A DNA stretch of 64,000 nucleotides from assembly GCA_973895155.1 (NCBI GenBank), contig OZ316894.1:2124457-2188456 (forward strand), given 5' to 3'. Under the pieces are notes generated by a model, which was not told where the DNA came from, ran no database searches, and saw only the letters and a list, made by a program, of their open reading frames with translations. Shown one piece after another: positions 1,970 through 54,981 of the stretch. The stretch's first letter is position 1; the number at the start of each line of letters is the position of its first letter. The translations under genes and the position numbers were made by a program. Source of the stretch: Marsupella aquatica (taxonomy: Eukaryota; Plantae; Marchantiophyta).

Positions 1970-4820
1970 CTAGACTTTGATGTGCTCTTCGAAGACCTCC
2001 ATATGCTCGGGCTCCAGTGCCATGACAAGGTTGAGTCCACCATCCTGCGTGCCGTTGGACAGCAGCAGGACAAACTCCACTAGAGGAGTAACGATGGGAC
2101 CTGCGTAGATGGGCTTTCCCCAGCCATAATCGATGGAATAAAAGGGCATCTTCCACCAAGCACTGAGGAAAAATCCTCCGAAAAGCGCCGGGATGCCTTT
2201 CCTTGTCTCCCCCCAATCAAATGATGACCTCACGTAGTCATCAGTGACCTGAGCAATAGCCTTTTGAATCACCTGCACCGCCTGGACGTAGGTGTACTTT
2301 TTTATTTCGCTGGGGATTCCTCTGGCGCAAGCAGAGTATACTGCATTTCCAGCGAAGTGCTTGGGAAGTGGAGGAATCACCCTGCTGCGGATATCCACCG
2401 CAAACAAAAGGTTGAACGGAGTCTCCGGTAACTCCACAGATTTCGTCCTGGCAAGCCAAATGTGGGCTGCTACGACCTCAAATGTCGACACTCTTTTAAT
2501 GACTCCTCCCTCAAGAGCTCTCTTCTTCAGGGTGTCAATATCCGCAGGAGTGAAAGGGAACGTTTTGGTGACGTGGGTCGAAATATTTTCGAGCTCCATA
2601 AATTCCTTGTCCATCTCATCAGGAATCGAGAAGGGAGAAACACCGGCATCAAGGCCGGGAATATCATCGGGAAGCTCAAAATTTTCGGGATGATCGTATT
2701 TCACGATGGGGGGATCTCTTGCTTTCAGAGATGACCTGTCGTAAGTGGGTGTAAACAGCAGGCCCTCCCCTCTAGCGATGGAAGTCCAATTGAGGAAGAA
2801 GTCAATCGCTCCTGGCCCGTCAAAGAGTGTATGGCTCATCATAATACCCATTGTGTAGCCCCCACATTTGAAGACTGTGACCTGTCATAGAGAAGGTACA
2901 CAGTACGTTGTAAGTTGATCTCCCATCACAAGACAAGAAGAGAAGAGAAGAGTAGAGAATAAGATGCAATTTTTTGGATGTTCACTCGAGAGGGCGTAGA
3001 CCGATAAAACAGCAGGCTAAGAGGTTCTCTCATCGTGCTTGCACCTGCTCAACGGTATAAACATCATTGATCATTACATTTCAGCTCTCCTGCCCTCAGC
3101 GTTTCCTTACCCTACTTCTCAATTGGCAGAACACAACCAGAAAATAGCACATGACTGAAGTCCCTCACATACTTCTTTTTCAGATTCCTCCATTCACTTA
3201 GCTCTTGACAAATGTTGCGACGTAGCTGATCAGATCTGACATCATCTATTCCCTGCCCTTACAGGACACGAACTTAAGTTATCGCTGTTTCCTTGAATCG
3301 TACCACATCAGGCCATAGCTCATTCTCCCGGACATATGGCAATGACAGAGACTTGGGACAGCACGACGGAGGCAGATGGTCCTATCCGGCTGAAGTGGAG
3401 ACGCCGATATCTGCCACCAGCAATGTAAACTATAACTGCCCATCCAACAAGTCTCCAGGTGGCCCAAGGAAGCTCTGTAGATCAACTACTCCATTATACG
3501 AATACCACTCTCAGCCGTTACCTTCATCCACGCCCCTCACATTCCTTACTCCTTCGCAAACCCAGATCGTGTGAGAGTAAGGGCATCCATCCTGATGTTC
3601 CTAAAATGTCAAGGCTTGCAACTTCTCACCCATCGAAGAAGAGACAAAAGTAATAGCCATCTGCCAAATGAACATAGCTACTGCAGATCTGCAATTCCAT
3701 GAACGGAGCTAGCTCTGGGTAATGAAGGACTCCACATTTGCATGTATCCTATCCTATCCATTCATCCTTCGTCTAAATGCGCTCCTGGGCACACATTGTT
3801 CAGACACTGTCAGCCCCTCAGATCTGTTGTTCCCAACCGTTCAGGAACTACGACTGTAGGTGAGACAAAGACACGAAGCACCATCGTCTCGCTCAACGGA
3901 ACACATACAAGCTACATCGTGTCATTAACCTTGAAGGCAGTCTAACGTGCCATTAATGTCAAGCAGACATCAAAATAAGAGTGACAACTCTCAATCTGAA
4001 ATGCACAGTAAAAGTACTGGCTGCACGGTTCCAGCCCAAGCAACGGGTGAACTAACTGCATTGGGATCTACCTACCCCCTCACACACTCATGCCCCGAAC
4101 AGGGAAAAGTCGACGGCAATGCGGCGTTGAAGCCCCATCAACGCACGATCTTCAGAGAGGGTCCTCACCTTCAATGGGGACGGTGAAGGCGCAACCCAAA
4201 CGAGTCACAATCAGAAACGCGACAAGTCCAGGGAGTGTGACCCATTCCATAGAGAGGGCCATCACATGAGGCTCTGATTGGAGCATGCAGAGGATTTGGG
4301 AGATTGAAAAGACATGTGAGGGACGAAGGAGTCAGAGCAATGCGAAGCAAGAAGCAAAACCCACCTGCACGGCGAGGAGAGGCGTATCCAACGCACTCGT
4401 GACGTTGAGGAACTTGGTTGGAACCAACTTCCTGAAGAGGGGGTTCGGCTGGACCACATCGCCCAAATCGGAGATCCTGACATCGCTAGTGCAGTGAGTG
4501 AATTGGGCTCCAGTCCTGTTGAGGTCAATCTCCAGCCTCCTGCTGCCGGGCCCCTCCGGCTTCAATCTCCCGGTCATGAAATGGTATGGCACCAGAACCT
4601 TGGCCAGAGACTCCTTCAGCGTCTCCACCAAGTTATCCACAGGCTTGCTCGGATTGGGCGGGTAAAAATACACCGTCTCGACCGGGATCACCAAGCACTG
4701 GTCGATGTTGCTCAGGAAGAGTCTGCCGCCTGGAGTGGGCTCTGCTGGGACGATGATCGCCGTCTCCCCCACTTTTGAAATCTTCAGATCTGTCACCACC
4801 GCCGGCCCCTCGGACCCCAT
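1970..4820 (-). CDS. BAHD acyltransferase, omega-hydroxypalmitate O-feruloyltransferase (ASFT/HHT)-like; 2 exons (4820-4365, 2881-1970), ~455 aa
   Basis: ATG at 4820, LFLSNIDQ...VETVYFY N-terminus, catalytic HxxxD (HTLFDG) and DYGWG motif. A phase-0 GT-AG intron follows the conserved Q (LLAVQ|VTVFKCGG), and the exon lengths 456+912 keep the frame. Confidence 0.93.
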
Positions 4821-5382
4821 CTTGTCAAAATCTCCTCTCCTCCTCACGAGCTGAGACTCGCTCCCTTAACAGCGAAGCTGCCTCTCTCTTCGTCCTCCTC
4901 ACCCAAATGCTCCAAACTGAGAAATGGCAGAGCTACGTGACCGATTGAGTGAGCTCTTGCTCTGTTCTCGTCACCTCTACCTCTCACTCCTCCGTCCTCT
5001 CCTTCTCCTTCTGTTGTTGCTGATGTGCTGTTTGTCCGAAGCTCTTGGATCTATCGATTGAAGCCTAGGACGAGAGTGGGGACATGGCAAGCTAATCAAC
5101 AACCTGTGCGCACCACCACACCGGGCTGGCAAGCTCAGCTACCACTACCGTTGGACGTTTAAAGCACTGTCAGAGATTCTGCTCTGCAAGGTACACAACA
5201 TCAACTGCAAATATACTACTCCCCCACTACTCCACCACAACGCCCGTTTTGATCACACCACACCTCCTACAGCAATTGCCAATCTCGTCGGAATCTCTCG
5301 TCCTGCTCCTCCCTCTTCTCCTCCTGTTCGTCTACTGTAGTACACCTTTTGCTGCTTCCTTTGTTCCTCCCTCTCTTCGCCT

Positions 5383-9048: not shown

Positions 9049-9583
9049 TGTCATGCCGAGGGACAGTGCCTCCTGTGCACATCGGTATGTCCCTCGCATG
9101 CCCGCTAGGTATGTAGTTAGGGCTAGTGTACTACTTGAGTTAGTGTCATGTTCTTGTAGCGAGTCTGGGCCGTTCTTGAAGCAAAGGTGTTTGTTAGTGT
9201 GATGCCTGGACCCGGTCCTACTTAGGGCATGTTTTTCTTTGCCGTTTTTCAGATCTTCTTGAATCGCTGTTGACACAGCTCAGACAGTGCTTGTCGGTTC
9301 CGTACACGGGATTCACACAGTGATTCGTTAGATGCTCCTGGCCGATCTTGGCATCCTGCCGGTTTTCGATTCGATTTCAGTACAAATGTTTCTCTTACGC
9401 CTCTTATATACAGAGGTTTACACCTCCACTACGTACATACCACCTCAGTTGCTTTTTCTTGGCACTTGTGAATGTGATTGGACTTTTTCTAAGGATGTTG
9501 GTTGCTAGCAGCTTGCACATATGCATTGCCGGTGACTTGTATGTTTTTGATACACTATGGCTACGATACTATATGTCACGACA
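9049..9583 (+). mobile_element. Solo X-Y terminal unit of the adjacent retrotransposon family, opposite orientation
   Basis: TGTCATG...CACGACA ends with a 4-bp TSD TAAA (9045-9048 and 9584-9587). It aligns over its full length, with scattered substitutions, to the reverse complement of 10377-10916. Confidence 0.93.
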
Positions 9584-10376: not shown

Positions 10377-11096
10377 TGTCGTGACATATAGTATCGTAGC
10401 CATATAGTGTATCGAAAACATACAAGTCACCAGCAATGCATATGTGCAAGCTGCTAGCAACCAACATGCATAGAAAAAGTTCAATCACATTCACAAGTGC
10501 CAAGAAAAAGCAACTGAGGTGGTATGTACATAGTGGAGGTATAAACCTCTGTATATAAAAGGCGTGATAGAAACAAACGTACTGAAATCAAATCGAAAAC
10601 CGGCGAGATGCCAAGATCAGTCGGGAGCATCTAACGAATCACTGTGTGAATTCCGTGTACGGAACCGACGAGCAGCCTCTGAAAAACTCTGTCTCACAGC
10701 GATTCAAGAAGAACTGAAGAACGGCAAAGAAAAACATGCCCTAAGTAGGACCGGGTCCAGGCGTCACACTAACAAACCCCTTTTGCTTCAAGAATAGCCC
10801 AGACTCGCTACAAGAACATGACACTAACTCAAGTAGTACATTAGCCCTAACCATACCTAGCGGGCATGCGAGGGACATGCCGATGTGCACAAGCGGCACT
10901 GTCCCTCGGCATGACAGCTGTCGTGACATATAGTATCGTAGCCATATAGTGTATCGAAAACATACAAGTCACCAGCAATGCATATGTGCAAGCTGCTAGC
11001 AACCAACATGCATAGAAAAAGTTCAATCACATTCACAAGTGCCAAGAAAAAGCAACTGAGGTGGTATGTACGTAGTGGAGGTATAAACCTCTGTAT
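10377..11096 (-). repeat. 3' repeat block Y1-GC-X2-Y2 (element orientation)
   Basis: The Y copies (178 bp) differ at 1 position. X2 (362 bp) differs from X1 at 4 positions. The 2-nt GC spacer is at 10917-10918. Confidence 0.95.
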
Positions 11097-11103
11097 CCCC
11101 CCC
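11097..11103 (-). other. Polypurine tract (G7) directly abutting repeat Y1
   Basis: The minus strand reads ...GTCTGGGGGGG|ATACAGAGG, ~32 bp after the pol stop codon. Confidence 0.7.
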
Positions 11104-11135
11104 AGACCACAGCCAAAAGGAGGGCTGAAGAAAAG

Positions 11136-12673
11136 TCAGATAGCACGTGGAGCACAGGAAGGGCAAAACCATAACCCTTCTGGCACCTGGGTAAGTTCAG
11201 GCCGAAGGCAGAAAAGATGGTACCCTCCATTGCAATTGTCACACAGCAACATCTGGTCAGCATCATCAATTCGCAAACACACTTTGCAAGGGTAGTCCAC
11301 AGGTGGAATCCAAGTAGAAGTCACAATGGTGGGATCTAGGTTAGGCAGATGACAAGGGGCACAATTCTTGGCATTGTCAGCAATTGTGCGCCCATCTGCC
11401 CCTTGTAACTCTAGCACTCCAGACGGTCGAATAGCTTTAACCCTGAGAATAGTATGACTGGTAGAGGTGTCCAGGGTGTCGTTAGCTTGCCGCTGCAAGT
11501 ACACAAAATCTCCACATCAAACTTCCTGACCTTGGGCTGAAAAGTGCCCCCTCGTGTGTGTGCATAACGCAGTGTGTCCCTGTGTTGTGCAATGGCCAAA
11601 TTCTCCATGGCCATGGGCATAACCCTCCTGAATAGGGCAGCCCTCTCAGAGATCACATCAGACCAAGTCACAGCTGAATCCAAGTCCACCACCTGAAGCA
11701 TGTGAGCAGCAATAGCAGAAGGTGGAACTGGGTGACGACCAAACAACAAGAAGTAGGGAGAAAAGTTAGACAGTGATGCATGTCTGGACATCCTATACCC
11801 CATGGCAATGTAGGGTAAGGCCAGGTCCCAATCTTCCTTGTTTTTGGTGAGGCAGATCTTTCGAAGACCCTTCTTGCATGTCTGAACCATGCGTTCTGCC
11901 AAGCCATCTGCCTGTGGGTGATCTCGTGATGTCCGGCGATGATCAATGAGGGCCTGATCAAGCAGCTCCTGGAACTCTCCTCTAAACTCTGAGCCCTGGT
12001 CAGTGAGACATTCTGCACAAGCTCCAAAACGACTAAGAACTTGTTGCAGGAATGCCTGGCTGGTGCTACGGGAGGTCTTATCCGGCAATGCCACAAGTTC
12101 TATCCACTTGGAGAAATGCTCTATCATGATCATGATGTAGAGATTACTCCGAGACGTGAGGGGTAATTCTCCAGCCAAATCACATGACCAGCGATAAAAC
12201 ATGCCCTGAATGGGGAGTGGATGAAGTGTGGGTTGCCGAGATGTGAAAGAAGTCCTCACCCTATCACACTGTTCACACCGGGCAATAACATCTCGAACCT
12301 GGCCATGCATGCCTCTCCAATGATAATGAGGGACCAAGAGGCTGTAAGTCCTCTTAACGCCAAAATGACCAAGCTCAGAATGTACCTTACGGATAAGGCC
12401 AACCCTCTCATGAATGGGTGGAACCACCACTTCCTTGTCTGGCAAGCAGCGCACGAGATGATCTCCCTTCCACAAGTAGCGCTTGGACCTTTGCTGAATT
12501 CAGTCTCTCTGGGCAGCAGTAACATGTGTGGGGTACTCCCCATGCTGCAGAAATCTCAGAGTGTCGCTGTCCTCCCATATGTCCACCACAGGTTGGTCAA
12601 CAACATAGCATGGCAGCAAAGCAAGATACGTCGATGCATGAAATGTAGGCAGGATGGAAACCTGGTCAAAATC
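11136..12673 (-). pseudogene. Integrase (HHCC zinc finger, DDE core) with C-terminal SH3-like segment and PHD finger; disrupted
   Basis: VHSELGHFG...CEQC, WSCDLAG, LTDQGSEF, HPQADGLAER. PHD CKVC...LLCDNCNGGYHLFCL...WFCPSC at 11154-11288. In-frame TGA at 12500-12502 and a frameshift near 11510 (FDV[G]DFVYLQ). Confidence 0.92.
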
Positions 12674-14216
12674 CTACCGTGCATCTGAGGAATCATCAGA
12701 GGCAATCAAAGGGCTGCGGGACATAGTGTCAGCATTTTGATGTGTCACACCAGGCCTATGAATTACCTCAAAATCATACTCCTGGAGTATGAGCGCCCAA
12801 CGAGCAAGCTTGCCAGTAAGCTTGTCGTTGGTCATCAACCACTTCAAGGGCTGGTGGTCGGTGTAGAGAACAAACCTGGTCCCATAGAGGTAGGGCCTGT
12901 AATGTATGACAGCCCACACAACAGCAAGGCATTCACCCTCATAAGAAGAATAATGACTCTCTGCCTGATTGTTGCTCCTGGATGCATAGGCAATGACGTA
13001 CTCTTTACCTTCCTCATCATGCTGGCCCAGAATGGCACCAATCCCAAGGGCACTCCAATCTGTATGTAGCACAAAGACCTTGTTGAAATCAGGTCTTCTC
13101 AGCACCGGGTATTCTGAGAGCTTCTCCTTCAAAGTGGCAAATGCTGCCTCAGCATCTGTACTCCATGTCCAAGTCACATTCTTTTTCAACAAAGCATACA
13201 ATGGGTGTGCAATGGTACTGAAATCTTTGATGTAGATCCGGTAGTAATTGCACAACCCAATAAAACTCCTCAAAGTGTGAACATCGGTAGGAGTACGTGG
13301 GCATTTCCAAGATGGATACCACCTTGGCCCAGTGAGCCATGGTTCCATTTGGAAGAATGCGATGCCCAAGATATACTACTGATCTGACAGCAAATTCACA
13401 CTTCTTGGGGTGTATCTTTAGGTTCACCTTCTTAAGCCTCATGAATAGCTCCTCAAGGTCAAGTAGATGCTGGTCAAATCCTTTGCTGTGGACCAACACA
13501 TCATCAATGTAGCATTTCAGAAACTCAGCACCTTGAAGAACCTGGTCCATGACTCTTTGAAAGAATATGGGCGCATTCTTCAAGCCAAATGGCATCACCA
13601 ACCACTCCCATAGTTGGTTACTGCCATGGAAAGCTGTTTTCTTGCGGTCCTTTGCAAGCAGCAAAATCTGGTTAAAGCCTTGCCTTAGATCCACAAGAGT
13701 GAAGATGTCTGAGTCTCCAATGCTGTCAAATAGCTCCTCTGACCGTGGCATGGGGTATCTGTCCTGGGGTGTGACCAGGTTCAATGGCCTGTAGTCCCCA
13801 CACATGCGCTTCTCTGTCCACAATCCACTGGAATCCTTCTTTGCTGGCATCACTGTAGCTGCCGCAAAATTTGATGTAGATGGTTGAATAAGACCAGCTT
13901 CATAGAGCTCTTGGCACCTCTCATCCACCAGCTGCCACTCATGCTTACTCAAACGGTGTCTCCGCCTGAAGATAGGTGTTTCATCAGCCAACTCAATGGA
14001 GAACTGCATAGTCTTGCACTTACCCAAGTCCTTCATAGAGAAAGCAAACACATTCTCATGCTTGAGGAGCAAATTCAGCAGCTGGTCCTTCTGTCTTTTA
14101 CTCAGGTGGTTGCCCATGATAAATGTGTAGTTGGCAACACTAGGAATAGGACCTGATGTACTCGTACTTGAAGAGCCATAAGTGCCAGCCTCTCCACTGT
14201 CCAAGCTGCTAGCATG
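12674..14216 (-). pseudogene. Gypsy-type reverse transcriptase + RNase H; disrupted
   Basis: RMCGDYRPLN, VDLRQGFNQI, MPFGLKNAP, YIDD; RNase H LHTDWS, YEGECLAVVWA, YTDHQPL, NADTMSR. Frameshift near 13295-13298 and TAG at 12674-12676. Confidence 0.95.
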
Positions 14217-14469
14217 CTACTGATAAGGTGATGAGGCCTCTCCAAGGCCTGCTGTACCTGCTGATCCGAAGTGGTCCACACCATGAAACTCAGAAATAAT
14301 GTCAGCCGCATTACAAGGGACCTCCTCCCCCCCAACACTTGGACTGAAGTGGTGAGTGTTGGACAGAGGTAAGTGCACCTGGTCTGGATGCCATGCAGCA
14401 GCACTATGGAGTGGTAAGGCTGGAGCTCCTAATGCTGGAGGAATGTACATCTGAAAAAGGATACAAGTG

Positions 14470-15413
14470 ACCAGAAGCCAAGTGAGAGCATTGAGATCCA
14501 TTACCCTGCCAAGTAAAGCATTCCTGGCCAGCCTGGTGATTTTGGTGTGACCTGTAGTACCGGGTTGGAAGCCCATAGCCCGTTCTCTCTCCTCAGGACT
14601 AGGTTCATCCCATGTACCGGTAGAATGTCGATAAACCAGACCAGGACCATCACCCTGAAAAGCATGTGCACCTAGAAAGGACACAAATGTAGGCCAAGTA
14701 GCACGGGGTTGTTCAATGGTATTGGCTGGATACCAAGGTGCTGGCTCTTGCCGTGTAACTGGTTGGCAAGAACTGTCAGGATCCAAAATCTGGTCCACTG
14801 TAAGGTTAGTGTCCCTGGATGTGTGGTGAAGAGCCATCTCCAGCAAGGAAGGTGGTGCAAGGTTAGTCCAAAAGTTACGAAGACGATGTGCATAAGAACC
14901 ACAGTGCACTGCATCAATGAGAAGGGGTGGTCCCAAGTAGTGCTGGACCACACTGAAATCCTCTTTGACCTGTGGACGCTGGTCAAACTGAGATGGAGTA
15001 TTCTCAATGATATAACCAACAGCAGGATAAAGGGATTGAGCCCAGGTGAGAATCTGAACCAATGCTGTGAAAAGGCCAGAACGAGAATCATGTAGTCCAG
15101 CACCGTGACCAGCAGCTAAAAACCCTTGGCATTCCCAACCAGCTATGATCAAATCAAGGGAGCCAAGAAGGGTTAAGTGCCGGTGCTGGACAAGCTGGAT
15201 ATCTGGAGGAAAGAAAGAAAATGCAGACTTCCATGCACTGTGTGGAAATTGCTGAGAAAATCGCTCTGAAAATTCCAGCAGACGGGATTCAGCCACTTGC
15301 CTTGCACCTGGATCAATATCCACATAGATGTACTGCTTCACCACCATGCCAGACTGTAGGAGAGCTTCCAGGCCTATAGAAATGCCACCAAAAAGCTCAA
15401 GCAATGTAAGGCC
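14470..15413 (-). CDS. C5 cytosine DNA methyltransferase domain (DNMT3-like) inside the polyprotein
   Basis: Motifs in canonical order: I LLELFGGISIG, II YVDID, III PDI, IV DLIIAGWECQG, V RSGLF, VI IIENT, VIII AHRLRNFWTNL, IX ERERAMGF, X RLARNALLGR. They lie in the uninterrupted ORF 14217-16541. Confidence 0.92.
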
Positions 15414-15749
15414 ATCTGAAGGAGGAGTCCATGTAACTGGTGCGCTCAAGATTGGGGCTATGGGTTGTCCATGATGCTGCCCAAGGTCCTCAAATTTGTG
15501 CAATGCAGCCACCAAAGGTCCTTGGGCTGCTTGGAGCCGTTGTACCACCTCTGGTTGATGATCCACGTTGCTGGAAAGTGCTGCTACACGTGCAGAAGCA
15601 TGTGCAGTAGCCACCTCATCCTCATCCTCCTCAATCCAATCCTGCAATGGGTGGTTGACATAGGTAGCTGTGTGCACTGCTTTCAACACACAGTGGTGAG
15701 CCATAGGGGTATGGGCACCATGCAAATCAAGTGGAATGTATCCCAAGTG

Positions 15750-16140
15750 TGAGCCATCCGTATGCCAATCAACTCTGTAGTATGCATGCTCATGCCAGTT
15801 GTCAATGGTAAAACCTGGTGGGAACAAAGCCTCCTGGCCAATGAGCACATCATACGTAGTGGCATTGGTAACCAAACATCTGACTGGGAAATGCAATTCC
15901 TGATCTGTACCTCCATTAAAAGTGAGAGTGAGTAAAGTAGAACTCTCACCCAGCACATCCTCCACAGTGCCACTAGCAGTCCGAATGTGCCACCTGGATG
16001 GCTGTAAATGATCAGTCAGCAGTCCCATCTTCTTGGCAAACTGAATGCCCAAGATTACTGGTTGAGCACCTGTGTCTAGCATGACCACCTGAGGAGTGTG
16101 ACCCTCCAACTTGACTGCTGAATTCCTATTGTCAACAATG
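15750..16140 (-). CDS. Retroviral-type aspartic protease domain
   Basis: VMLDTGAQPVILG (DTG at 16068-16076), flap IRTASG and YDVLIGQE. Confidence 0.85.
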
Positions 16141-16583
16141 GCAATGGTGGTGGAAACTAAAGTCCTGTCACTAGGCACCACTTTTGGCAAATGATGAGGT
16201 ACCTTGTGAAGGGAGTTAGTGTCCACGGTCTTCCCACTCAACAGCATAGCCAGGAAAGATGGAGCAGCATGACCAGAATCAAGTGTAGCTCTGGTCACAC
16301 AATCTGCAGCAATACTGTCATCTCTACCACTGGAAATCGGTACTGGGATAGCCAAACCAGTGGAAGCATGCAATGGAGAAGAAGAAGGTCCAGTATTAAC
16401 ATGAGATTGGACCTCCAAAACCGGTGTCACAGGGGCTGATGAAGAATGCAGTGAGCCCTCTAGCGCTCTGATGACAGCTCTAGCATCCAGCTGTAAATCA
16501 TGGCAACTGAAAAGTGGAGTGGTAAGAATCCTTTGTGCCATACTGGAGGTGAAATGCTCAAGCAGCTCAGGAAAAACAACTCC

Positions 16584-18527
16584 CTATGAAATGTCAGCAG
16601 CACCTGGTGGTGGAATGGATGTAGCTGCAGCTCCCTCCCCCCTCGCCAACAAGGTGCGCTCTTCAGCAAGTGTGAGTGGCTGAAAAGATTGGGGCATGAC
16701 AGCCCGAGCTCCCCTGGCTCTAGTCATAGGACCAGCAGCAAGACCATCAGCTTGTACAATGCGGCGTGTGGGAGCAATACGGGAGGCAGCACTGGCCTGC
16801 TGGTAAGCAAAATAGGAAGGGCAGAATGAATCTGAAAATTCTGCTGTAAGGCCAGGCTGTGTAGCAGAGGACAGCACACACTCACCCATATGAGCATCAA
16901 ATGGCAAGCCATAGAAAGAGCGGGGTAGGGGTGCTGAACTGTCAGTGGTGCCTGGGCCAGGGATGGGTTGCACGTGACCAGCCGGTTGAGAAGGACCAGC
17001 AGAGGCAGTGGACTTGCCTTTGATGTTGGCAAGTTGGGCACGTAATGACTCAACCTCATGAGTCAGAGACTGGAGTTGAGTTGCCTGTGCGTTGTGAGCC
17101 TCCTTCTGAGCTGGTTGCTTCTGTTGCTGCTTGGGCAATTTGTTAGCACTGGATGCTTTGCCACTGGAAGGAGGAGCAACGGATGCTGTAGGAGCCCTCC
17201 TAGCTGGTGGGGAAGTGGAAGCAGGAGCAGGATGAGTGGCCTACTGTCGTAGCTGCTTTCTCTCTAGGAATTTGGCAAAACAAACTGCCTCCAAGTGGCC
17301 CACTTTCCCGCAAAAATCACAAGACAGGTCCTCAACAACAATATCACATTCATTAGCCTTGTGATTGGGGTTACCACAGTAGTTGCAAGATGGCAGCATG
17401 AGAGCAGCATGGGCTGGCTTGGTCTTGGAACCATACTGTGGCACACGGGAAGGGGTGGCCAGTGTAGGGGCAGCAGCCTGGTACCTGGATCGCGGTGGAC
17501 GCGCAATACTGGCCTCATAATGTGCATGGGCCAACTCAAGTTTCTCAGTAGTGTCATAGACATTGAGCAGGGTGTAGCTGTCTCCAAACTCTGAGAATAC
17601 TTGCTGCAACACTTGCGAATGGAGAGCTGGTGTGCCCTCCAATGCGCGAAGATAGCGATGAGCAGCTTCCAGGTCAGTGATGCTCTGGGTGTCTTCCTTC
17701 AGCTTGAGAAGCCGGCGATACAGCATTTTCAATGTTTCATCGCGCTGCCTCACAAAGGTGGCCAACTGCATGATTTTATCAGCACTCTTGATTGGGAATT
17801 CCAATTCAAGAACCTGGAAAAACTCAGCCACTGGATCAGGAAAGGCAGGAGAATCAATGGTGGGATAAATGCCTGATGTAGCCTGTGCCAAGACAGTGGG
17901 AGTAACTGGTGCAGTGGTGGGAACTAGAGTAGGAGGGGAAGTGGCAGGAGCAGCAGCATGGGCTGCAATGGCATTCTGTAATGCCAGTTGTGAGGCAGCC
18001 GCAATTGCAGTGGCATATGCAGGGTTAGGCAATTGTGTGACAGCAAGCAGCCGTTGAGAGTGCTGCTCATACACATCCAAAGCCTCGTGGTGCACATACC
18101 TGGCTAGCTGCTTAAATGCAAAAGCATTTGTGAAATTGCTGCCATACTTCAACTCCAATTCGTAAACAACAGTGTAGAAAGTGGATTTGAACTCACGCAA
18201 AGAAACAGTGCCTGGCCGCCCGCTGAAGCGTTCAATGTGGCCAGATGAGTGACTGGCGTCCATGCTGTATGTCGGTGAAGCAGGAACAACCACGGATGCA
18301 GAAGGGGTAAATGGCAATGAAGTGATAGCAGGCTTGGGAGTAGTGGTGAAGCGACCGCCAAATGGAGCAGAAGGATTGCGTGGTGTGGGTGTTGCTGTTG
18401 TCTGTGGACGTCGTCGAAATTGCCGAGACTCCAATGAAATTGGCACCAATGGTCGTGGATCACTCCGTAAATGGTACCTGGGTGTCGGTGGCGATGTGCT
18501 GCTACCTCCTGGCTCGTCGGCTGACAT
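16584..18527 (-). pseudogene. Gag with two CCHC zinc knuckles and a low-complexity linker; in frame with pol but broken by TAG codons
   Basis: IERFSG, RQRDETL, CNYCGNPNHKANEC and CDFCGKVGHLEAVC. ORFs starting at 18527, 17138, 16541 and 14204 share one frame, separated by TAG at 17241, 16584 and 14217. Confidence 0.88.
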
Positions 18528-19189
18528 GCTGCATGCTCACCTGGGTGCCAATGGGAAAGAAACTGACAAGAAAAAGAAATGGCAGCCCCAAGGCTAGGAA
18601 ATAAAACCCACAAAGGAAACAAACAATGCGAGGCAGAAATGGGTAGAATGTGTAAGCACGGAGAAACCGTCACCGGAGAAAAAGGACCCTTAAAACCACC
18701 AAATTTTCCCTTGTCGCACTTACCTATGTGTATACATAAGCAAAGCAAAGAATAAGGGAAAACGGGCCCCTAGAACGTGAAAGGAGGGCCCCCTTTACGT
18801 GTATACCTCGGGCCCCTTGTGGACCCGGAAACTGGCAGCAAAGGTATGCAAAAGTAGGTGGGACGGTCGTCGCACGGCGAAGGAGCAAAAAGACCAAAAA
18901 CTAAAAGAAAAGGACCCCAATTAAGTGTATACACACGGGGGCGGGGCGTCGGCAGAAAAATGGTCATAGTGGGGACCGGCCGCGGTGCCCTATGCACATG
19001 CCCTCATGTGAGTCGAAAGACTCTGCAATCGTCGCGCAGCGGACGAGCAACCATGGGGAAAAAGAAACAGAAGAAAAACGGCTTTGGCAAGGGCGAAAGG
19101 AAAAGACGAGACCCAAGGCGAGGCGAGGAAAAAGAAAATGGGCCTTTAAGTGCTCGAGCCCTGCACAGGGCTTTGCGCACCCTCCCCCT

Positions 19190-19510
19190 CCTCTAATGCT
19201 GCCTAGGGCCTCGTGCCTGGCAGGACTGTGACTCCCGAGAGGAGGGAGTCGAATGTACTCCCCCTCTAATGCTGTATTGGGCTTCGTGCCCTCTCTTGGC
19301 AGTCTCGCTCCTCTCCTGCTCTAATTAATGCCTCATAGGCCTTCGTGCCTGGCAGAAGGACTCCTGTGGGAAGGAGTCGTATGTACTCCCCTTCTCCCTC
19401 CTGTTAATGCAACATGGGGCTGCGTGCCCTCTCTTGGCACTCGCTTCCCCCTCCCCTCTTTAATGTGTCATAGGGCCTCGTGCCCTCTCCTGGCACTCGC
19501 CCCCTTCCTC
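19190..19510. repeat. Degenerate tandem array (~5 units of 55-80 bp) in the retrotransposon 5' leader
   Basis: Recurring taatg...gggc(c/t)tcgtgcc(t/c)...ggca units, alternating between two variants. Confidence 0.75.
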
Positions 19511-20112
19511 TCCGTGGCTTGTGTTCGGCTCCCCCTCCTCTCCTCGCGCTTGTGCTCCTGTTCGGCTCCCCCTCGCGCTGAATTAAATGCTGGCCGAGAT
19601 GCTGGCAAAAGCAAGGGAGGAAGAAAAAAACACCGAAGGGAGGGCGCGCGGCCCTATGCGCGACCCAGGGGCAATGACGAGCCCCGCATGTGTATACACA
19701 GGCAGGACGGGGAGGCCGGTAGGAGAGAAAGAAAAACGTCCGGAGTGGGTAACATGGGCGTGCGGCCCTATGTGCGTGGTCGCCCCCTTGGCCGTGTGCA
19801 TACACAAAGGTGCGGCCTCTAGCTGCCAGGCGGCAAGAAAAGAAGGATCAAGAGAAGGGGCGAAAAGGCCCCCCTGAAAATGCAAAACCTCCTGGAAAGT
19901 GAGAAGCGCTCCCCTCGTCTCCTCCTGTGTGTACTCCGCTGGTCCGCAAATTTAAGTGTATACACATAAGTGATGTGTATACAAAGAAAAATCTAACTCT
20001 AACTCCATCACTAGATTTTTCTTCAAAGAAATTGCGCTGCTGTCGACGGAAAGTGTTGACCGTCGCGAGCAATTGAGAAACACAGCGTTTCTGATCTTCT
20101 TCCCTTCACTCG

Positions 20113-20128
20113 TCAGTTCTTCTTGAAT
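20113..20128 (-). other. Putative self-priming primer-binding site
   Basis: Perfect 16-bp inverted repeat of 20274-20289, located at the 3' edge of repeat X1. No TGG tRNA-type PBS is present. Confidence 0.75.
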
Positions 20129-20488
20129 AAAAGGCGTGATAGAAACAAACGTACTGAAATCGAATCGAAAACCGGCGAGATGCCAAGATCGGCCGGGAGC
20201 ATCTAACGAATCACTGTGTGAATTCCGTGTACGGAACCGACGAGCAGCCTCTGAAAAACTCTGTCTCACAGCGATTCAAGAAGAACTGAAGAACGGCAAA
20301 GAAAAACATGCCCTAAGTAGGACCGGGTCCAGGCGTCACACTAACAAACCCCTTTTGCTTCAAGAACAGCCCAGACTCGCTACAAGAACATGACACTAAC
20401 TCAAGTAGTACATTAGCCCTAACCATACCTAGCGGGCATGCGAGGGACATGCCGATGTGCACAAGCGGCACTGTCCCTCGGCATGACA
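20127..20488 (-). repeat. 5' terminal repeat X1 (362 bp)
   Basis: Direct repeat of 10555-10916 with 4 transitions. Confidence 0.95.
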
Positions 20489-23400
20489 GGGGCCATGTAA
20501 ATGGACCTGCGGATTAGGTGTGATAAAACTCAAGTGGCAGTCATTTTGTTTAACCCCCTTAAGACACTGGGGCTTAGATGTGTGCCAAACAATATCAAGG
20601 TCAGTTCAATCAATCCCAAGACCATGGGAGTTTGAAGACTCCCATTCTTGCCCTGAAGACTCGTCTTATCTTGTCATTGCCCTCCTGGGTATTGAGTGCT
20701 CAAAACCTCAATACAAGTAGGATGAAAGATGCTCAAAGAGTATCCACCTAGTAGCATTCAGGGAATTTCTTATTCTCTCACAAAATTGCAGAGCAGTGCC
20801 CTGCTGGTAAGGTGAAGGCTGCTCTCTATTATCCAATGGCCAAGATTTGTTCATCCTGTGGAAGCATTATAACTGGGTATTCCAATAGAATTTGGAGTTA
20901 GTCTCAATCATAATTCTTGGTAATAAGTACATAAGACGAGTACTCCCCACAACTTGCTTGTTTCCAACTACTTTAAAAAATGGGCTTTACTGGACTGCCA
21001 GTTTTTGTGGTCAAGTATCATGACTTGCCATCATTTTTAGATTATTACTACCATGCCACTCTTTTCATCGCTGCTTCAGTAACTCAACCCTTGTTAATTA
21101 GCAGAGATCCGATCGCCACATTGCATAATCTGTTGGACCCATCACCCTTGGAGCAGGGCATTGGGAGGTGGGCGATGGGAACCATCAAATTGTCAATGTG
21201 ATCATCTCAGGGCTACAAGATCTCTTGTGGTTAAGAAGGGTTTAGTGGCTAAATTGGGACAAAAAAGGGTACTATTCTAGTACTTATTCTAAAAAAGTGG
21301 CAATTTAGGAAAGCGCAGTCCAAGATTCTATTTTAATAAGGTGCAGTAGCAGTCATATCCAAAGGCTGCCCCAAGAAAAGTCCATTCCAAAAGTGTGGGA
21401 GCTTACTGTCCATTCATAGTGCAGATCACTTGCAAACTGAGCCGAGACTGATGACATTTCCCACCTTCCCACTTGAAGGCAAAAAGGGTTGTTAATACAT
21501 ACATTACAACGGTGGTTGGATTGGGTGCCAGGCTTTTGTTTTTCTCAACTGATTTGCGATGGGCCTTTTTCAAGGAGACCTCGAGTGAGACTCACCCAAT
21601 ATTGAAATCTGTCATCTTCTTAAAGAATTATTATTACACCTTGGTTGTTGGAGTGTCATGACAATAACAACAGGATGGTGGCATTGCTAGTTCAACTCCA
21701 TCTTTTGTGAGTTGGCTGGAGCGATGTCTTCATAGTTCAGATTCTATTGCCCAATATTCCAGTCCTTGGGTGTCATTGTAACTATGGAGGGGTCATATAT
21801 CAGGTAGCACGTTATTTATGAGCCTCAAATAAAATTATATGACACAAACCATATACTGTAGATGACACATGATATTCTTTAATTTAAAACCCTGTCATTT
21901 TCACTAAATTCTTTACAAGTCGTCTCAATATTGTTTAAAGAAACACAATACTTTTTGCAAGTCTTGTCCTGGTATATACAACAGAGTACTTTATGTCCTA
22001 ATTACAAGGAACGGTCCATGTCTCAATTTGAGAGAAAGGGGAGGAGTTAAATACTACCTTCTATACCCTTCCTCCCCGTCCCTTGCTGGTAAATGTACAC
22101 CAAAACGGGTTAACATATGGTGTACTGTGGGCATGTGCCCAGGTTGGACAGATTTTCTACACGACCATAAACCTACTCTAATGATGTTGTTGGGTCACTG
22201 AGTGCTCCTACCTGTCACTCTGCTTTCTAATCTGCAATTACAGGTTCCCATCTTTGCATGTTTACACTTGACAGCTTGCATTACACTTGCTTCAGCCCGA
22301 GGTAACTCTGCATGGGCTCGATTTGAGATAATTACTCTACGTAAAGTTGATTGAGAGATAATTAGTCTATGTCCACGTTACCGAATCTCCACTTGCAGTC
22401 CACTCACGTCAATAGAAACGAGATTTTCTCATTTTCAGTTGTGTCGCATCGCTTGCTTTGTTTCACCCGACAGTACTTTTGGACACAAGCTTAATTAGCT
22501 TCCCTACGTCCAAAGGGCTCAAAAGGATAAACAGTAGGCCGTGTTTAAGTGCACTGTTCATAAGTGCATTTTGTGTTTGAGCACTTATAATTGCAAATAT
22601 ACTTATCCATATTCACTGCCTAAAAAAGACCGAAACTCACTTTAAATGAATAAGTATAATCGCAATTACATATGGGACTGTCTCAATGCTTGTGTGTTGG
22701 ATATTATTGTCACTACTAAGTTGGTGTTTTGGCAGTTTGGAATATAGTAAGTGATGTTGAGTGGAAGTATAGTCGAGCATAAGTTACATGACTGAACAGT
22801 CAAATGCTGCAGGGGGATTGGTGAGTCAGCCTGGCAACTAGATTTGAAAAATTGTGCAAGATGTTGGGAGAGTGATTGGGATGGGCACCGACAAGGTGAA
22901 CAATGGCACCTTTAGGCCTATCTCATGGTTAAAGAAAATGTCACCATAATCAAACAGTAAGGAAGGTTTTGCTGGAGAGACATTTGTAAACACATCATGA
23001 TGAAGAAAGAGAAAAATCACATGCTATAATGTTTAGATAAGAAATTTCATAGACATGTTTAGAAAGTATGACTTGCACTAATCCATCAAATATGATTAGG
23101 TAGTAGCCAACCAGTGCATTAGAAGTGCAAACTCTTTGATGTGTGCATTTCTAACAAAACATTTGTACTGCAAAGTGTTCTGCACTTGAGGCTATAGGAT
23201 AATTTTACCTATAAATGCAAAATTGATCAAGCTTGCACTTATGACATAGTGTAAACCATGTATAAGTGCACAATATGTGTCTTTCAAATTTCATGCACTT
23301 ATGCATGGCTGTAATTGCATTTTGAGATTGCATGAAATTCTAGCTGAGGAGAGAGCAGCAAATCGGACCTTCTGTTTTTGGGCCCCAGTGCCCATGCCCA

Positions 23401-24923
23401 ACGACTCTCCACCTATTATCCTGCAGCTTAACGTGGGTCCTTTTTCCAGTGTAGCCGTGCACTTAAGTTGCTGATTTTAAAGGGAGCTCCAAGTACGTCA
23501 TTCTCGAGTGGCGGTACATAAGTGGATTGTGCTGAGCTCGGTGCTGATCGAGGTCCATGCATAAGAAGTCTTTGGGAGCGTTGCACTTTTATGTGTCAAC
23601 TATTTGAGGACTTTTCACTGAGCTTAATTTTTAAGATTTCTTTTTAGCGAGAGTGACCCTGACACCTTGTGTGAAGGAGAAAATGTTAGGGGAAAAGTCT
23701 TTATTGTATTTTCTAGATTCATTTTTGACCATCAGATCTCCCTGTATCTAAGGATAACCATCAGATTCTGTGGCAAGGTGGGAAATTTGCTTATAAAAAT
23801 GGAAAACAAAAAAACTAGCAAAGACTTTTCGGGGAAGTGAAAGCTGTTATGTCTGTCGCACTTGTCTCCTCCTTTATGGGTAAACAACTCCATATATGCC
23901 ACTGCCAAAACAACAGGAACTCCAAACCTGGAGACATGATCTCAAAAGCCAAAAACCCAATAAAGGGAAAGTAAAGGGGAAAACCCCAAGAAGACCAGAG
24001 AGGCCCAACAAACCAAGGAGAATCCCACAAAAACTAAAACAAATTACTAAGAAGCAACAACAAACTTCTAAACAATTGGTTTTTGTTTACAATTTTTCTC
24101 TAGCTTCAAGGAAACTTGCAAGTCTGCCAAGAACCAGATGTACAGGTCTGCCAAAAAAAATATTTACAGTTGGTAGGGGTGTTTAAAAACTTGGGGCATC
24201 TTTTTCAAAAGTGAATCATCCTTCCAAAAGCCAGTCAGTGTGAATTTAGCGTTTAAAATAAGGCAGCATCCATGGAGTTGGGCAAGACATAACTTAATCT
24301 TCTCAACATGCTTTATAATATTCTGACAATTAGCATAGGTTTTACAAGTACTCTAAAATGTTTTGTAGGTCAGGTTCAGAATTTTAATAATTATTGAATT
24401 TTTGCACTGTGATGGCTCTAAGGAAATATGCCTGCAGCAGTATCTTTACCAGGAACCTCGCTAATAATTGGTCCCACCAGAAGAAATCCTAAGCAAATCC
24501 CTGGTCTCCTCGATCTACCCAGTTAAGTTTCTGTTCAGGAGTAAATTAAAAACATTATATATAACATTGCAAAAGAAACTCAAGAGCCAAATGGGGAGGC
24601 AAGATAACAAGGGATTTTCTAAGTAATTTGTGCATGAGCAACTACTTATCACGGTGTGAATGTATAACTCTTAAGAACCAGTTTACAGATCACATTTCAG
24701 TCAAAATTGCAAATAGTGCTATCAAACGTGTTTGAACATTTTGTGTTAACCCATCTCAACTTTGGAAATCCATGCTTCACAGCAAACCTCTCGTCCATCT
24801 AGACCTAATATTTGAGCATCTTGATGTAAATATATAGCATTTCAAAGAATACGTGAGCTTAAAAAATTAAAACAATAAAATAATATGTAGGTTACTGAAA
24901 AAGAATTATAATATCGTGAACGA

Positions 24924-28100: not shown

Positions 28101-30120
28101 AAAACATTGGCAACTTCTGTTAAGAGAATTGAGAGAGCTTTGAATTGCCAAAGATGCATGACTGTCTTGTTTTCTGTCTCACCTCACTCTCTTGTGTGAT
28201 ATGTATCATCTGCTTTGATCCGACAAGGTCAAGAAACTCCTTTTCAGGGTTTTGGCAAGCGTCCATCTGAGAATCAATGAAAAGCCAGATTAATTAAAAC
28301 GTTTTGGGGTTCTTTAAGATTTAAGCCTCTTACGATGAAACTCAAAACAACAACAAAAACTTAGTAGGAAATCACCATGGAAATGAGGGGAATCAGAAAT
28401 CTTGTACCATGTACACATATTGTCACGTGAATTTATCTCAAGTTTTAGATCTTTAGGCATGTTAGTCACATCATGGTTTGTTTCTTACAAATCTTACTCG
28501 AGTTTATGAAATTTCATCACCTTGAAAATGAAACTTTATGAGCTTGAAAAAAATCCAATAAGTGTTAATGAGGCTCTCCAATGTCATGAATAAATTTTTA
28601 CGGCTAAATGTGCACTAGATGGGTCAGTCTGTATGGAGCCAGAATGAGCACTTTTTGGATGTGTGGCTTGTGTCATTTCAACTTTGTAGGGTTTTCTTAG
28701 AGTGGAGTAAAGCAGCCCTGGCTGACCGTAAGCCATGTTTTCTGGCCAAGGTTAGCGCGCAGGAGTCTTCCCCAAACTTTGGTCATGCACATACCTTTTC
28801 CAGCAAGCATGGCCCCACTCCAATCAGTCACCATCTTTTTCTAAACAATTGGATTGCAGTAGGGACTAGGTTGTTGGTTTTAGGGCATGTAGACAAATTC
28901 CTCTTCGCGACACTCCTATGGGGTTATTTCTGGGAGCTTCACCAGGCTTGCTGCTGAGTTGGGCTTTAGCTCTTGTGAATGTCTTTCTAGGGGACTCTTT
29001 GGCTTTTAGGCTCATTCATTTCCTATTGTTTTCTCTTGCCTTTGGCGTCCTGTCTTCAGCTTTCACACTTTTTGCTCTTTGGAGACATAAACACTAAATT
29101 ATGTCAATGTCACACATGCGAGAAAATTGTATTTTCTGATAATTATTTTATAGTTTTTAAGTACATTGCCACAATCCAGATGTTTGGATTTATAATACTG
29201 CCACGGTTTGTTTTTACAAAAGTGCCACAATTTTGTATATAACTCCTCTGGTTACCTTGGGGAACTTGTCATCCATATACAAAATCATGATATTTTTATA
29301 AATACAAAAAAAATATGACACTATTATCAATTAGAACATCTTTAGTGGCAAAGTACTTAAAAGCTGAATTATTTTAATGTCACTTTTTTTTGCCTAATTA
29401 TATACTTCAGCTCTGACTAATCTGTCCCCAGAATCAAAACCGCCCCATGTGATTAATGTTCCCCCCAAGCAAAATTGATTATGAATCCGTCATCCATTTC
29501 GTATTCGGGTCCAGTTGCCATGATTGTGACAACTCACTATTGGCTAGCCTTAACCTGGGGCCACCCTCCTTGGCCCCCCTTCCCTGTTGCAGGGCACACT
29601 TGCAAGTTCAGGAGGGGCACAAATATGTTGTTTTCCGCTCCACACTCCCCTGACTAAAACCTAACACTTTTGGCCCTCGTTTTTACTCAGGAAAATGTGC
29701 AGTGGGGAAAGGGAATGGGGCCATGTGGGGGTTTATAGTGACAACCTATACAAGTTTATACTGACCCTAATATGAAATGGGGGACGGATTGATAATTAAT
29801 TTGTTTTGGGGGCACATTAGTAATATAGGGTAGTGTGGGGAACAGGTCAATAAAAAGCTGTTACACACTTTGCCATTCCTTTAGTCTAAACCTTTCTCCT
29901 CCTTTGCTTAAGGAAAGTAATTCTAGCTGGCTGGGAATGATCAAATGGTCAACATCATGCAAGTTCTCATCATCGGACAGTAAGTTGTCATTGTCGGTAA
30001 CTGAACCTCAACACCCTCTCGCAGCCCTTCATCAGGGTGGGAAGTGGGCCAGGCAGCCAGGTGGCGCCAAAACAAGAGACCCAACTTAATGTTGAGGGTT
30101 AGTAAGGGTGTTGTGGTGAG

Positions 30121-30505
30121 GGACTGGCAAAGCTTGGATGGACTTGCTCAGAACATTTAAACTGACTCAGATAACATTGTCTACACTTTTGACTGAAATG
30201 TGAATAGTAAACTGTCCCCTTATTGTTTGCAACCGGTTTCAATTTCATTACTGAATCGGTTTCCTCGGCAATTGGATGACTTGACGACCTTCAACCCGGA
30301 AGACATCATGCCATTACTCTGAATCACCATGACATCTTGATTATTTTCTCCCCAAGGTAATCAAATTCATCAGCTATGATCTGTGACCAGTTCTTTTTCT
30401 GCGACCAGTTCTTTTTCTGCGACCAGTTCTTTTTCTTTAGAGTGTAAAAGCAACAATTGCATTATGCAGTCTATGGGGATGGGTAGGGACAATGTCTCCG
30501 ACCAT
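30121..30505 (+). repeat. Dispersed repeat, copy 1 (contains an 18-bp unit x3 at 30385-30436)
   Basis: Colinear with 63063-63410 (ggactggca.agcttggatgga...ctcagataacattgt.tacact.ttgactgaaatgtga...catgccattactc...ggatggg.agggacaatgtctc). Confidence 0.8.
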
Positions 30506-30680
30506 CTGGGCTGTTGAACAATTGCATGTAACAAATATTAGCTCTCAGATTTGTGAGATGCAGCGTTGAGCCTCCTGGGATCATTCACGAGTCTCTGTTG
30601 TGAGTAAAAGCTCTCCAAAATACAAACGGATCCTCTTGAGAGCATTCACATTTCACAAGTTTCGTCTAGACGCTATTATC

Positions 30681-40696: not shown

Positions 40697-41755
40697 TGCT
40701 CCCACCCACAAATCCCTCCCTCCACTACACCAAATCAATCGCCAACTCCCCGATCCGACTCTCCACGACCGACTCCTCACAGATCCGGGCTCTCCTTGTC
40801 CCGCCAGAGCCGTGATCGCTCCGTACTAGTGCGCCCCCTACAATGTGGCAGCAGCTTCCTTACTAGCAATGCATGACCCTCTTCTTGAACCCAACCGACC
40901 CCGAAGCTGGGTGACCTCCTCAATTAAAACAACACTACGGTGGTAGATCGGATGCCCCCAGATCCGTTCCTAACTTGCTGTGAAGTACATCGTCATCAGT
41001 CTGCCCTCCCAGATCCACAAATGGGAAGATTGAAAGGCCACGGGAGAACGAAAGAAAGAGAGAGGTGGATTGGCACTCCAATGATGGTATCAACTTACAG
41101 CATTATGAGGGAAGCCTGTACTACTACTGGCAGCAAATGTTTTGGGCAAACTACTACTCTGCCCCACATGTTGGCTGGAGGAGCAGGGAGGGCGGACTGG
41201 AGCAGGCATAACAGAATGGTCTCTCTTGTCTGTGTGTGGGCCGTGGGGTGACATGACAGAATCGGCTCATGACGAGGTGGGTCTGGGTGTCTGAGGAGTG
41301 AGGAGTAGATTGTGTGTGCCTTGATTGTGAAGCAAGGGAGCTGCCGATTGTTCCCAAGAGCGAAGAGAGTGGACAGGGACTGAATCAATGGGGCAAGACT
41401 GCGGAAAAGCAGGATTGATGTGAGTGACAAACCACAGCTTTGCAGACAGGCAGGCTGGCTGGCAAACGAGGAGAGAAGAAGGCTTGGGGGGGGGGGGGGG
41501 GGGAGGGGCTGTCATCACCACGACACCACCAGCTACTGCTACTTCTCTCCTACTCTCCTCCTGACAGCGGTCCAGAGGACACTCTTTTTGGGTGGTTTCA
41601 CTTTTCAACGTTCAACTGCATGAAAATTGAAAATTGTGATGCGAGGAACTCAAACCAGAACTTTAATCTTTCAGTCCAGACACAAAAAGAATCTGGACAC
41701 ACTAGAACTGGCCACTTGGGGGTGAGTGGACTGTTATATATGAAGGCACTAATCC

Positions 41756-49637: not shown

Positions 49638-49787
49638 AATGGTTTGTAGAGTAGTTACATTGAGTTCCAGATTTGAAGGATGAACACACATTGCGCTGTT
49701 TACAACCATTGAAAACATTATTCAAAAAGTATAGCTTCAAAAATATTGTACTCTCGTCTTCTTTTGACTACAGATCTGCACCTACTT

Positions 49788-54617: not shown

Positions 54618-54981
54618 GAAACGAAGTCAAGACATGCGCAGGAAGGTTTGGCGTAGGGCTCGACTGGTAAATGCTTCGTCTGGATCCATATGATTTCATT
54701 TTGTGGACAAGAACTCAGGGTAGATGATCAATCTTCCAGGTTCTAGAACTTGTGGACTTATGGCGGACAAGAGAACTCCTCCTCGGCAAACGACTTAATA
54801 TTTGGTGAATTGTTTTTGGACCGTGTACTGGAATCGGACAGGGGCGGCCATGACTTGACGGTCAATGGATAGCAGAAATGAGGGCTTCAATGTCTAGGAG
54901 CCACTGTCGGTCAATCACAGAAGCAATGGATGAAAGTTGGAGATATTGATTGCATTGCTCTCGAAGTTACATTCCGCAGGA

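Follow-up and report, generated by a model that had tools for sequence, protein, structure and literature searches.

A Ty3/Gypsy retrotransposon of a liverwort with a DNMT3-fold methyltransferase domain and rearranged end repeats

Introduction

What is a cytosine methyltransferase doing inside the polyprotein of a liverwort retrotransposon, and how would an element whose end repeats are not ordinary long terminal repeats (LTRs) enter its host genome? Both questions are raised by a stretch of 64,000 nucleotides from Marsupella aquatica (contig OZ316894.1; hereafter the window), in which a first-pass annotation had noticed a C5 cytosine DNA methyltransferase (DNMT) domain in a retroelement. The annotation pointed to precedents in dinoflagellates and a charophyte, and the accessible text of de Mendoza et al. 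(2018; PMC5890265) bears this out: it describes retrotransposon-borne DNMTs, KnitGypsy-Dnmt3 in Klebsormidium nitens and SymbioDIRS-Dnmt3 in a dinoflagellate, and regards DNMT capture as particular to the lineage of K. nitens. For streptophyte retro-DNMTs, the de Mendoza report is the sole source cited in the accessible portions of a 2026 preprint and a 2025 paper, and according to the accessible text of a review (PMC6338049), land plants such as tracheophytes lack methylase-bearing transposons. The openly accessible literature covered here gave no account of bryophyte or chlorophyte retro-DNMTs or of a Gypsy route with permuted LTRs. The fusion of a DNMT to a Gypsy element is already known from K. 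nitens; what is new is the anatomy of the ends.

Results

The element and its surroundings

The host is a liverwort, likely a leafy one, because the flanking exon of a BAHD acyltransferase is closest to Calypogeia fissa (87%), with 65-69% for Marchantia and Riccia and at most 56% for named vascular plants and the remaining matches; the first-pass annotation had already placed the locus in an embryophyte. Host genes are found at 1970-4865 (-), 33297-40825 (-), 54934-55419 (+) and 60635-60943 (-), namely a BAHD acyltransferase, a Cys-rich GLG1-like gene (PF00839), and RCL1-like and bile-acid-symporter-like exons recognized by eye. Fragmented open reading frames (ORFs) at 48256-53577 with a weak SWIM finger match (E 0.018) are likely a MULE-type DNA transposon, and a dispersed repeat (30118-30512 and 63061-63413, with 74-88% identity and a brief match in inverted orientation at 24679-24723) is possibly a small non-autonomous element. 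By eye, and without Pfam support, a 224-codon ORF at 45579-46253 (-) resembles the C-terminal portion of a protein from a non-LTR retrotransposon.

The element at 20488-10377 (-) is almost certainly a Ty3/Gypsy retrotransposon of the KnitGypsy-Dnmt3 kind, with a DNMT3-fold domain in its polyprotein. Its domains run gag, protease (PR), DNMT, reverse transcriptase (RT), RNase H (RH), integrase (INT) and PHD finger, which includes the gag-PR-RT-RH-INT order and the DDE integrase characteristic of Ty3/Gypsy. Pfam found no tyrosine recombinase, the enzyme that marks DIRS, PAT and Ngaro elements, among the ORFs of the element, and target duplications are present. The termini are TG..CA, and the duplication of 4 bp lies within the usual range of 4-6 bp. 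The element is nevertheless a structural variant of Ty3/Gypsy, as it does not have two complete direct LTRs at its ends: the repeats noticed at first reading are real, but they are arranged as A-coding-B-A-B. This split layout, the self-primer and the PHD finger had escaped the first-pass annotation. The features, all on the reverse strand except the last, are the following:

10377-20488 (-): whole Ty3/Gypsy element, A1-internal-B1-GC-A2-B2, termini TG..CA
20489-20492 (-): 4-bp target-site duplication CCCC, left copy; right copy at 10376-10373
20127-20488 (-): repeat A1, 362 nt, starting TGTCATG, with 4 differences from A2
20276-20287 (-): predicted start of the transcript, whose first 12 nt would form the self-primer (A position 202); the start is deduced from pairing
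20115-20126 (-): primer-binding site immediately following A1, able to pair with the self-primer; a tRNA-type TGG is absent
18528-20114 (-): 5' leader, with short degenerate GC-rich repeats at 19194-19509
16584-18527 (-): gag region, two CCHC knuckles (17387-17346, 17321-17280), stops at 17243 and 16586
15804-16115 (-): aspartic protease (PF13975, E 1.1e-6), DTG at 16079-16065
14470-15413 (-): DNMT3-fold C5 cytosine methyltransferase, motifs I-X, catalytic motif E-C (profile, phmmer, AlphaFold model, fold match)
13293-14216 (-): reverse transcriptase (PF00078, E 4e-29), YIDD at 13511-13500; stop 14219 before RT, frame break at ~13293
12749-13075 (-): RNase H (PF17917, E 2.7e-39)
11512-12499 (-): DDE integrase with HHCC finger (PF00665, E 1.5e-13); D 12184-12170, D 12004-11990, E 11902-11888
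11139-11288 (-): PHD finger at the C-terminal end of Pol (PF00628 on relatives), severed in the window copy by the frame break at ~11511
11097-11103 (-): G7 polypurine tract, directly before B1
10919-11096 (-): repeat B1, 178 nt, ending CACGACA
10913-10922 (-): palindromic B1/A2 junction GACA-GC-TGTC, putative integrase attachment site
10555-10916 (-): repeat A2
10377-10554 (-): repeat B2; the A2/B2 join (10555/10554) corresponds to the predicted joined cDNA ends
9049-9583 (+): solo A+B unit, 91.5% identical to A2B2 and derived from a related copy, TG..CA, 4-bp duplication TAAA

The window copy is dead, with five stops (17243, 16586, 14219, 12676 and 12502) and two frameshifts (~13293 and ~11511). 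The insertion is nonetheless young on an evolutionary scale, since A1+B1 and A2+B2 differ at just 5 of 540 sites (0.9%, all transitions), in keeping with the divergence of about 1% noted at the outset. The recent activity proposed on this basis thus applies to the family but not to this copy. Similarly, the DNMT was said to lie in frame in the polyprotein, fused between PR and RT. It does share a single 788-codon ORF with the aspartic protease (16583-14217, -), and its position is as described, but the polyprotein is broken, and stop 14219 falls between the DNMT and the RT. A fusion of DNMT and RT in one frame is seen in relatives (DNMT-RT-RH in P0121, gag to INT in P0308, and also P0001 and P0137), and P0122 has gag-PR-DNMT in one protein. 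Thousands of contigs from the runs of three organisms cover the whole element including the DNMT, a contig depth that does not equal copy number.

Two further observations concern the element at large. Differences between copies over 10555-20126 (run X1) include strand-biased transversions, with 21 G>T and 19 T>G against 5 C>A and 2 A>C. In the integrase (12004-11888, -), 35 positions separate the second Asp from the Glu, both in the window and in all 36 relatives matched; in retroviral integrases this spacing is one position longer.

The methyltransferase domain

By fold and motifs, the domain is a whole DNMT3-like C5-methyltransferase. The motifs occur in the normal order (I 15404-15372, IV 15140-15123, VI 15008-14997, VIII 14891-14862, IX 14591-14568 and X 14525-14499), that is, not permuted as in DRM, and the nearest solved relatives are DNMT3A, B and C. 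The completeness of the domain and its DNMT3-like motifs VIII-X, as noted at first reading, stand: the peptides had been quoted correctly, all landmarks are present, and an alignment-based AlphaFold model (pLDDT 95.5) matches DNMT3A/B (E 2e-19, TMq 0.70). The proposed check with HMMER against PF00145 was less clear-cut. The 788-aa ORF gives a weak match (E 4.4e-4) whose 20.2 bits stay below the curated cut-off of 22 bits, although many homologues of the domain carry PF00145, DNMT3A is the top phmmer match (E 3.6e-6), and a profile of the family recovers DNMT3A with an E value of 1.3e-24. That profile scores DNMT3A at 89.7 bits, DRM at 53-59, HhaI at 42 and DNMT2 at 34; phage methyltransferases reach 70-85 bits, the best of them (83-85) almost level with DNMT3A, and a host DNMT3 is therefore no more than a candidate donor. 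The ESM Atlas yielded only generic C5-methylase clusters, and IMG/VR only weak phage methyltransferases for the DNMT and no match for the integrase, hence no DNMT-less relatives that share the repeats.

Motif IV reads G-W-E-C-Q and so departs from the Pro-Cys catalytic dipeptide. Among 85 aligned homologues the residue before the catalytic Cys is Glu in 35 and Pro in 50, and so the E-C form is a family variant. Counts of motif IV taken from the metagenome loci are skewed by the search pattern and were set aside. The catalytic columns are kept in nearly all of the same homologues (C104 in 84, E146 in 85, R186 in 81 and R188 in 79). At residue 108 of the catalytic loop all 85 share one residue type, and the window copy alone has a non-conservative change.

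Distribution and selection

Homologue searches returned 224 and 93 proteins, with Calypogeia, Sphagnum, Marchantia, Closterium, Chlamydomonas eustigma, Chromochloris and Monoraphidium among the named hosts, and Klebsormidium nitens GAQ93235.1 and Scenedesmus came in addition from cluster look-ups with 20 selected proteins. No tracheophyte is named among these matches, and the tracheophyte part of the statement in the review, as its accessible text gives it (PMC6338049), stands. The profile used for the representative search included flanking RT, RH and INT columns, and its 984 matches at 1e-30 are not a count of DNMTs; all 127 new proteins taken from that list do hold the DNMT domain. The best 80 of 386 metagenome matches are Sphagnum-like by similarity and keep the domain order of the window.

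The place of the DNMT in the polyprotein is flexible, because it is found in three positions: after PR in a fusion with RT, as the last domain of gag-PR, and between RH and INT. It follows the protease in proteins with streptophyte names and lies in the RH/INT interval in those with chlorophyte names. Trees of RT-RH and of the DNMT (36 elements) both part the DNMT-before-RT from the DNMT-after-RH arrangement (support 85 and 91). The suggested comparison of the two trees thus recovers this split, with a patristic Spearman correlation of 0.68 and 13 of 33 splits in common; the deep branches are poorly resolved. In a rooted 56-row tree the after-RH group branches from within the after-PR group, on a weakly supported backbone; a branch with 100/99 support has 48 retro rows on one side and 8 phage rows on the other. 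The 56 rows comprise retroelement domains and phage enzymes other than those that score 70-85 bits.

Could the domain be a neutral passenger, captured once by the window copy or its near kin? At least one stop is present in the DNMT of 52 of 52 distinct moss-type copies, as one would expect of a passenger. The moss-type copies, however, are decayed in RT as well; dN/dS among them is 0.34 for DNMT and 0.35 for RT, values that are inflated because the copies have decayed. Between the window and moss-type loci, dN/dS is 0.09 for DNMT, in line with 0.11 for PR and 0.06 for both RT and INT, with dS near saturation. The domain also ranges from chlorophytes and Klebsormidium to bryophytes, and motifs I, IV (here P-C), VI and VIII are kept in 9 of the 9 Marchantia retro-DNMT proteins examined. 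The low dN/dS and the motif conservation in Marchantia refute the passenger reading, to which we gave very little credence. The sequence comparisons instead indicate a DNMT domain that is family-wide and under purifying selection, neither confined to this copy nor neutral, two of the outcomes that the first-pass annotation had named as fatal to its proposal.

Marchantia gag-PR-DNMT proteins are 93-97% identical to the reference and have near-intact ORFs; in Marchantia polymorpha they carry the annotation of ordinary genes. The P0133 cluster (Mp4g09160, MpVg00370, MpVg00540, Mp5g06330, Mp5g06860 and Mp2g17920) consists of retro-DNMT ORFs annotated as hypothetical genes; several members lie on the V chromosome of Marchantia, and their gag-PR-DNMT stops short of RT.

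End repeats and target duplications

The repeats of the window copy follow the scheme A1(362)-internal-B1(178)-GC-A2-B2. Repeats that are 99% identical misassemble easily, and one locus (L018) has two copies in a tandem or nested arrangement, which might suggest that the split repeats are an assembly error or the product of nested or tandem insertion. We considered this highly improbable, and it is refuted by recurrence. The full layout is found at 8 distinct loci and further partial independent ones, with target duplications, and it recurs in contigs of four runs and, according to the accessible text of PMC5890265, in Klebsormidium. Five other loci have the form A-internal-B. The 4-bp duplication is exact in 10 of 15 complete insertions (the window element, the solo unit, five of the eight A-B-A-B loci and three of the five A-B loci), has one mismatch in 3 and is absent in 2. 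The solo unit lies 0.8 kb away from the element and is inverted relative to it; recombination of A1 with A2 in a sister copy would fit its structure.

The spacer between B1 and A2 measures 2 nt (GC, AC, GT or AT) in 14 of 14 distinct, cleanly called loci, by inspection also in L083, and in the variants from runs X1-X4; around it the palindrome has a constant CA-NN-TG, with transition variants of GACA-GC-TGTC. A G-tract precedes B1 in all 19 rows that have a B1 (the window and 18 loci, duplicates counted). The A2/B2 join is more varied. In 13 distinct moss-type insertions it is blunt in 7, shares an overlapped AT in 4, is three bases short in 1 and contains a tract G in 1; in the liverwort runs it is nearly invariant, with a single 1-nt variant at ~1.4% of depth (X2, X4). 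The mirror form, A-B-GC-A-internal-B, is seen in none of 26 distinct left ends (moss-type loci and the window). The 3' ends of L033 and L083 show B-A, with B2 not detected.

A predicted self-primer

In the window, 16 bases pair between the putative transcript start in A1 and the site that follows A1, against a 95th percentile of 11 and a maximum of 15 in controls. Of the 25 left ends that were scored, 18 pair at 11 or all 12 of the primer positions (L041 and L043 probably represent a single insertion, and L051 is unscored). Primers of the liverwort and moss types differ at two positions, each matched by a compensating change in the binding site, and in a sister subfamily (run X4) the 12-nt site is kept while the sequence beyond it diverges. 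We infer self-priming as in Tf1, which primes itself from its first RNA bases according to the accessible text of PMC7175516.

Discussion

A proposed route through an internal palindrome

We consider it probable that the element integrates through its internal palindrome and not through the ends of its cDNA. The primer site and the G-tract set the reverse-transcribed LTR as B-GC-A, with the TG/CA pair only in its interior, and the integrated form would therefore be a circular permutation of the cDNA. The transcript would begin at ~20287, and its first 12 nt, as the pairing and the Tf1 precedent suggest, would anneal after A1 and prime the minus strand; the plus strand would start at the G-tract before B1. 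The linear cDNA would then have B-GC-A at both ends, running AT..AT, with no terminal TG/CA. Cleavage by the integrase is predicted at CA/GC/TG of the left unit, the two bases being lost, and insertion would create the 4-bp duplication that is observed. The two free cDNA ends would be joined, either before insertion as a 2-LTR circle or later by repair, to give A-internal-B-GC-A-B, and the heterogeneous A2/B2 join of the moss-type copies is as end-joining predicts. Cutting at both sites, or recombination between B1 and B2, could yield A-internal-B. A symmetric 2-LTR circle would produce mirror copies in equal number, and since none was seen a bias towards the left site must be assumed; it may arise because the left unit is double-stranded long before the right, or because methylation shields the later site. 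Cleavage of a palindromic LTR-LTR junction has a parallel in the foamy-virus integrase, as described in the accessible text of PMC1180852.

The layout could also result from a different mode of replication. The left ends show a single permutation only, and the A/B join is near-invariant in the liverwort runs, as would be the case if the join were inherited. In PAT/Ngaro-type replication the RNA extends into B2, the junctions are copied from a template, and the full circle is the precursor. The A-coding-B-A-B layout is indeed that of DIRS-type elements in the accessible text of PMC5890265. However, the primer site and the G-tract are placed exactly so as to define an LTR of B-GC-A, the join variants include copies whose terminal AT is overlapped and one with a G from the tract, and the element combines a DDE integrase and target duplications with no tyrosine recombinase. 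Even on a PAT/Ngaro-type route the integrase would have to cut CA-GC-TG, and we regard such a route as unlikely. Integration through the palindrome remains our preferred reading.

What the methyltransferase may act on

Made within Pol and hence present in the particle, the methyltransferase might mark the cDNA. We lean slightly towards newly made cDNA as its substrate, with methylation at CpG, because of the place of the enzyme in Pol, its conserved catalytic residues and the activity of SymbioDIRS-Dnmt3, which methylates CG in yeast (PMC5890265, accessible text). Base composition is no proof of self-methylation. CpG observed/expected in the window is 0.29 in the coding part, 0.49-0.64 in host DNA and 1.03 in repeat A, and in six moss-type loci the flanks (0.15-0.26) lie below the coding part (0.32-0.40). 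Since the moss-type flanks are the more depleted and repeat A is not depleted at all, we rejected CpG depletion as a sign of self-methylation. Leaders in these loci (L015, L033, L034, L042, L074 and L078) have ratios of 0.73-1.11 against 0.15-0.26 in the flanks; leader and repeats there retain CpGs within a CpG-poor genome.

The enzyme may instead have another job: it could mark the insertion site or host DNA, act on element RNA, or bind DNA without turnover, perhaps aided by the PHD finger on the integrase. KnitGypsy-Dnmt3 gave no methylation in yeast, a result its authors call inconclusive in the accessible text of PMC5890265, and its inactivity there would fit such a role, as would the E-C motif in place of P-C, the lack of a clean CpG signal and the three places that the domain occupies in the family. 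However, the catalytic Cys, the Glu and both Arg, kept in 79-85 of 85 homologues, fit cytosine catalysis, and the fold is of the DNA-type DNMT3, far above DNMT2 (89.7 against 34 bits). We therefore think another job less likely and continue to favour the cDNA.

Taken as a whole, the locus is probably best explained as a dead element of the KnitGypsy-Dnmt3 kind, whose enzyme likely methylates CpG in cDNA and whose integrase is predicted to cut at an internal palindrome. More speculatively, and with considerable doubt, one may picture an old green-plant Gypsy lineage in which the attachment site moved away from the cDNA ends into an LTR palindrome, all insertions are circular permutations of the cDNA by an obligate cut at the junction, and the methyltransferase marks the cDNA, thereby sparing one of two identical sites as the template of the following round.

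Comparison with known systems

The closest known system is KnitGypsy-Dnmt3. According to the accessible text and the legend to Figure 4c of PMC5890265, it shares with the window element the Gypsy domains, an intronless DNMT3-like domain in Pol, purifying selection and DIRS-like A-coding-B-A-B repeats. The K. nitens protein GAQ93235.1, taken to be a copy of it, has the DNMT right after the protease (35% identity over 327 aa, E 2e-54) and, as retrieved, contains no RT. The two elements differ in host, K. nitens against a liverwort, and in the catalytic motif, P-C against E-C; for KnitGypsy-Dnmt3, termini, a target duplication, a primer and a PHD finger go unmentioned in the accessible text of PMC5890265. 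Whereas capture is treated there as specific to the K. nitens lineage, relatives are found here in chlorophytes, Zygnematophyceae and bryophytes. Liverworts and mosses have the family in abundance, contrary to both a Klebsormidium-specific capture and the absence from land plants stated in the review, and as Marchantia polymorpha is a model with methylation mutants, retro-DNMT function becomes testable. SymbioDIRS-Dnmt3 likewise has a DNMT3 domain in Pol with RT and A-coding-B-A-B repeats, but, by the same accessible text, it is a dinoflagellate element with a tyrosine recombinase, in contrast to the DDE integrase and the 4-bp duplications of the window element.

Tf1/sushi and the plant Tcn1 chromoviruses resemble the window element in Ty3/Gypsy domain order and in self-priming from the start of the RNA (accessible text of PMC7175516 and PMC6317226). 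They have an 11-nt primer and a chromodomain, in contrast to the 12-nt primer, PHD finger, permuted LTR and methyltransferase described here. Troyka, a further candidate, has ordinary LTRs in the accessible text of PMC12440569 and is unrelated. In the 2-LTR circle of foamy virus, as the accessible text of PMC1180852 has it, processed ends arise when the integrase cleaves the palindrome at which two LTRs meet, much as we predict for the window element. The foamy-virus palindrome arises by ligation of the ends, whereas the LTR unit of the window element itself contains the palindrome, and no other site would be usable. If this is true, integration at an internal junction would be a natural example of a pathway under debate for retroviruses, and LTR retrotransposons of this type would be overlooked by standard LTR finders. 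Finally, Gypsy-7a_cRei and REM1 of Chlamydomonas combine Gypsy domains with a PHD finger; for Gypsy-7a_cRei, the figure legend consulted in PMC9940879 mentions "LTR subparts" and lists no methyltransferase, and the legend to Figure 6 there has the element active in Chlamydomonas laboratory strains. If it shares the layout of the ends, Gypsy-7a_cRei offers a ready system in which integration can be tested.
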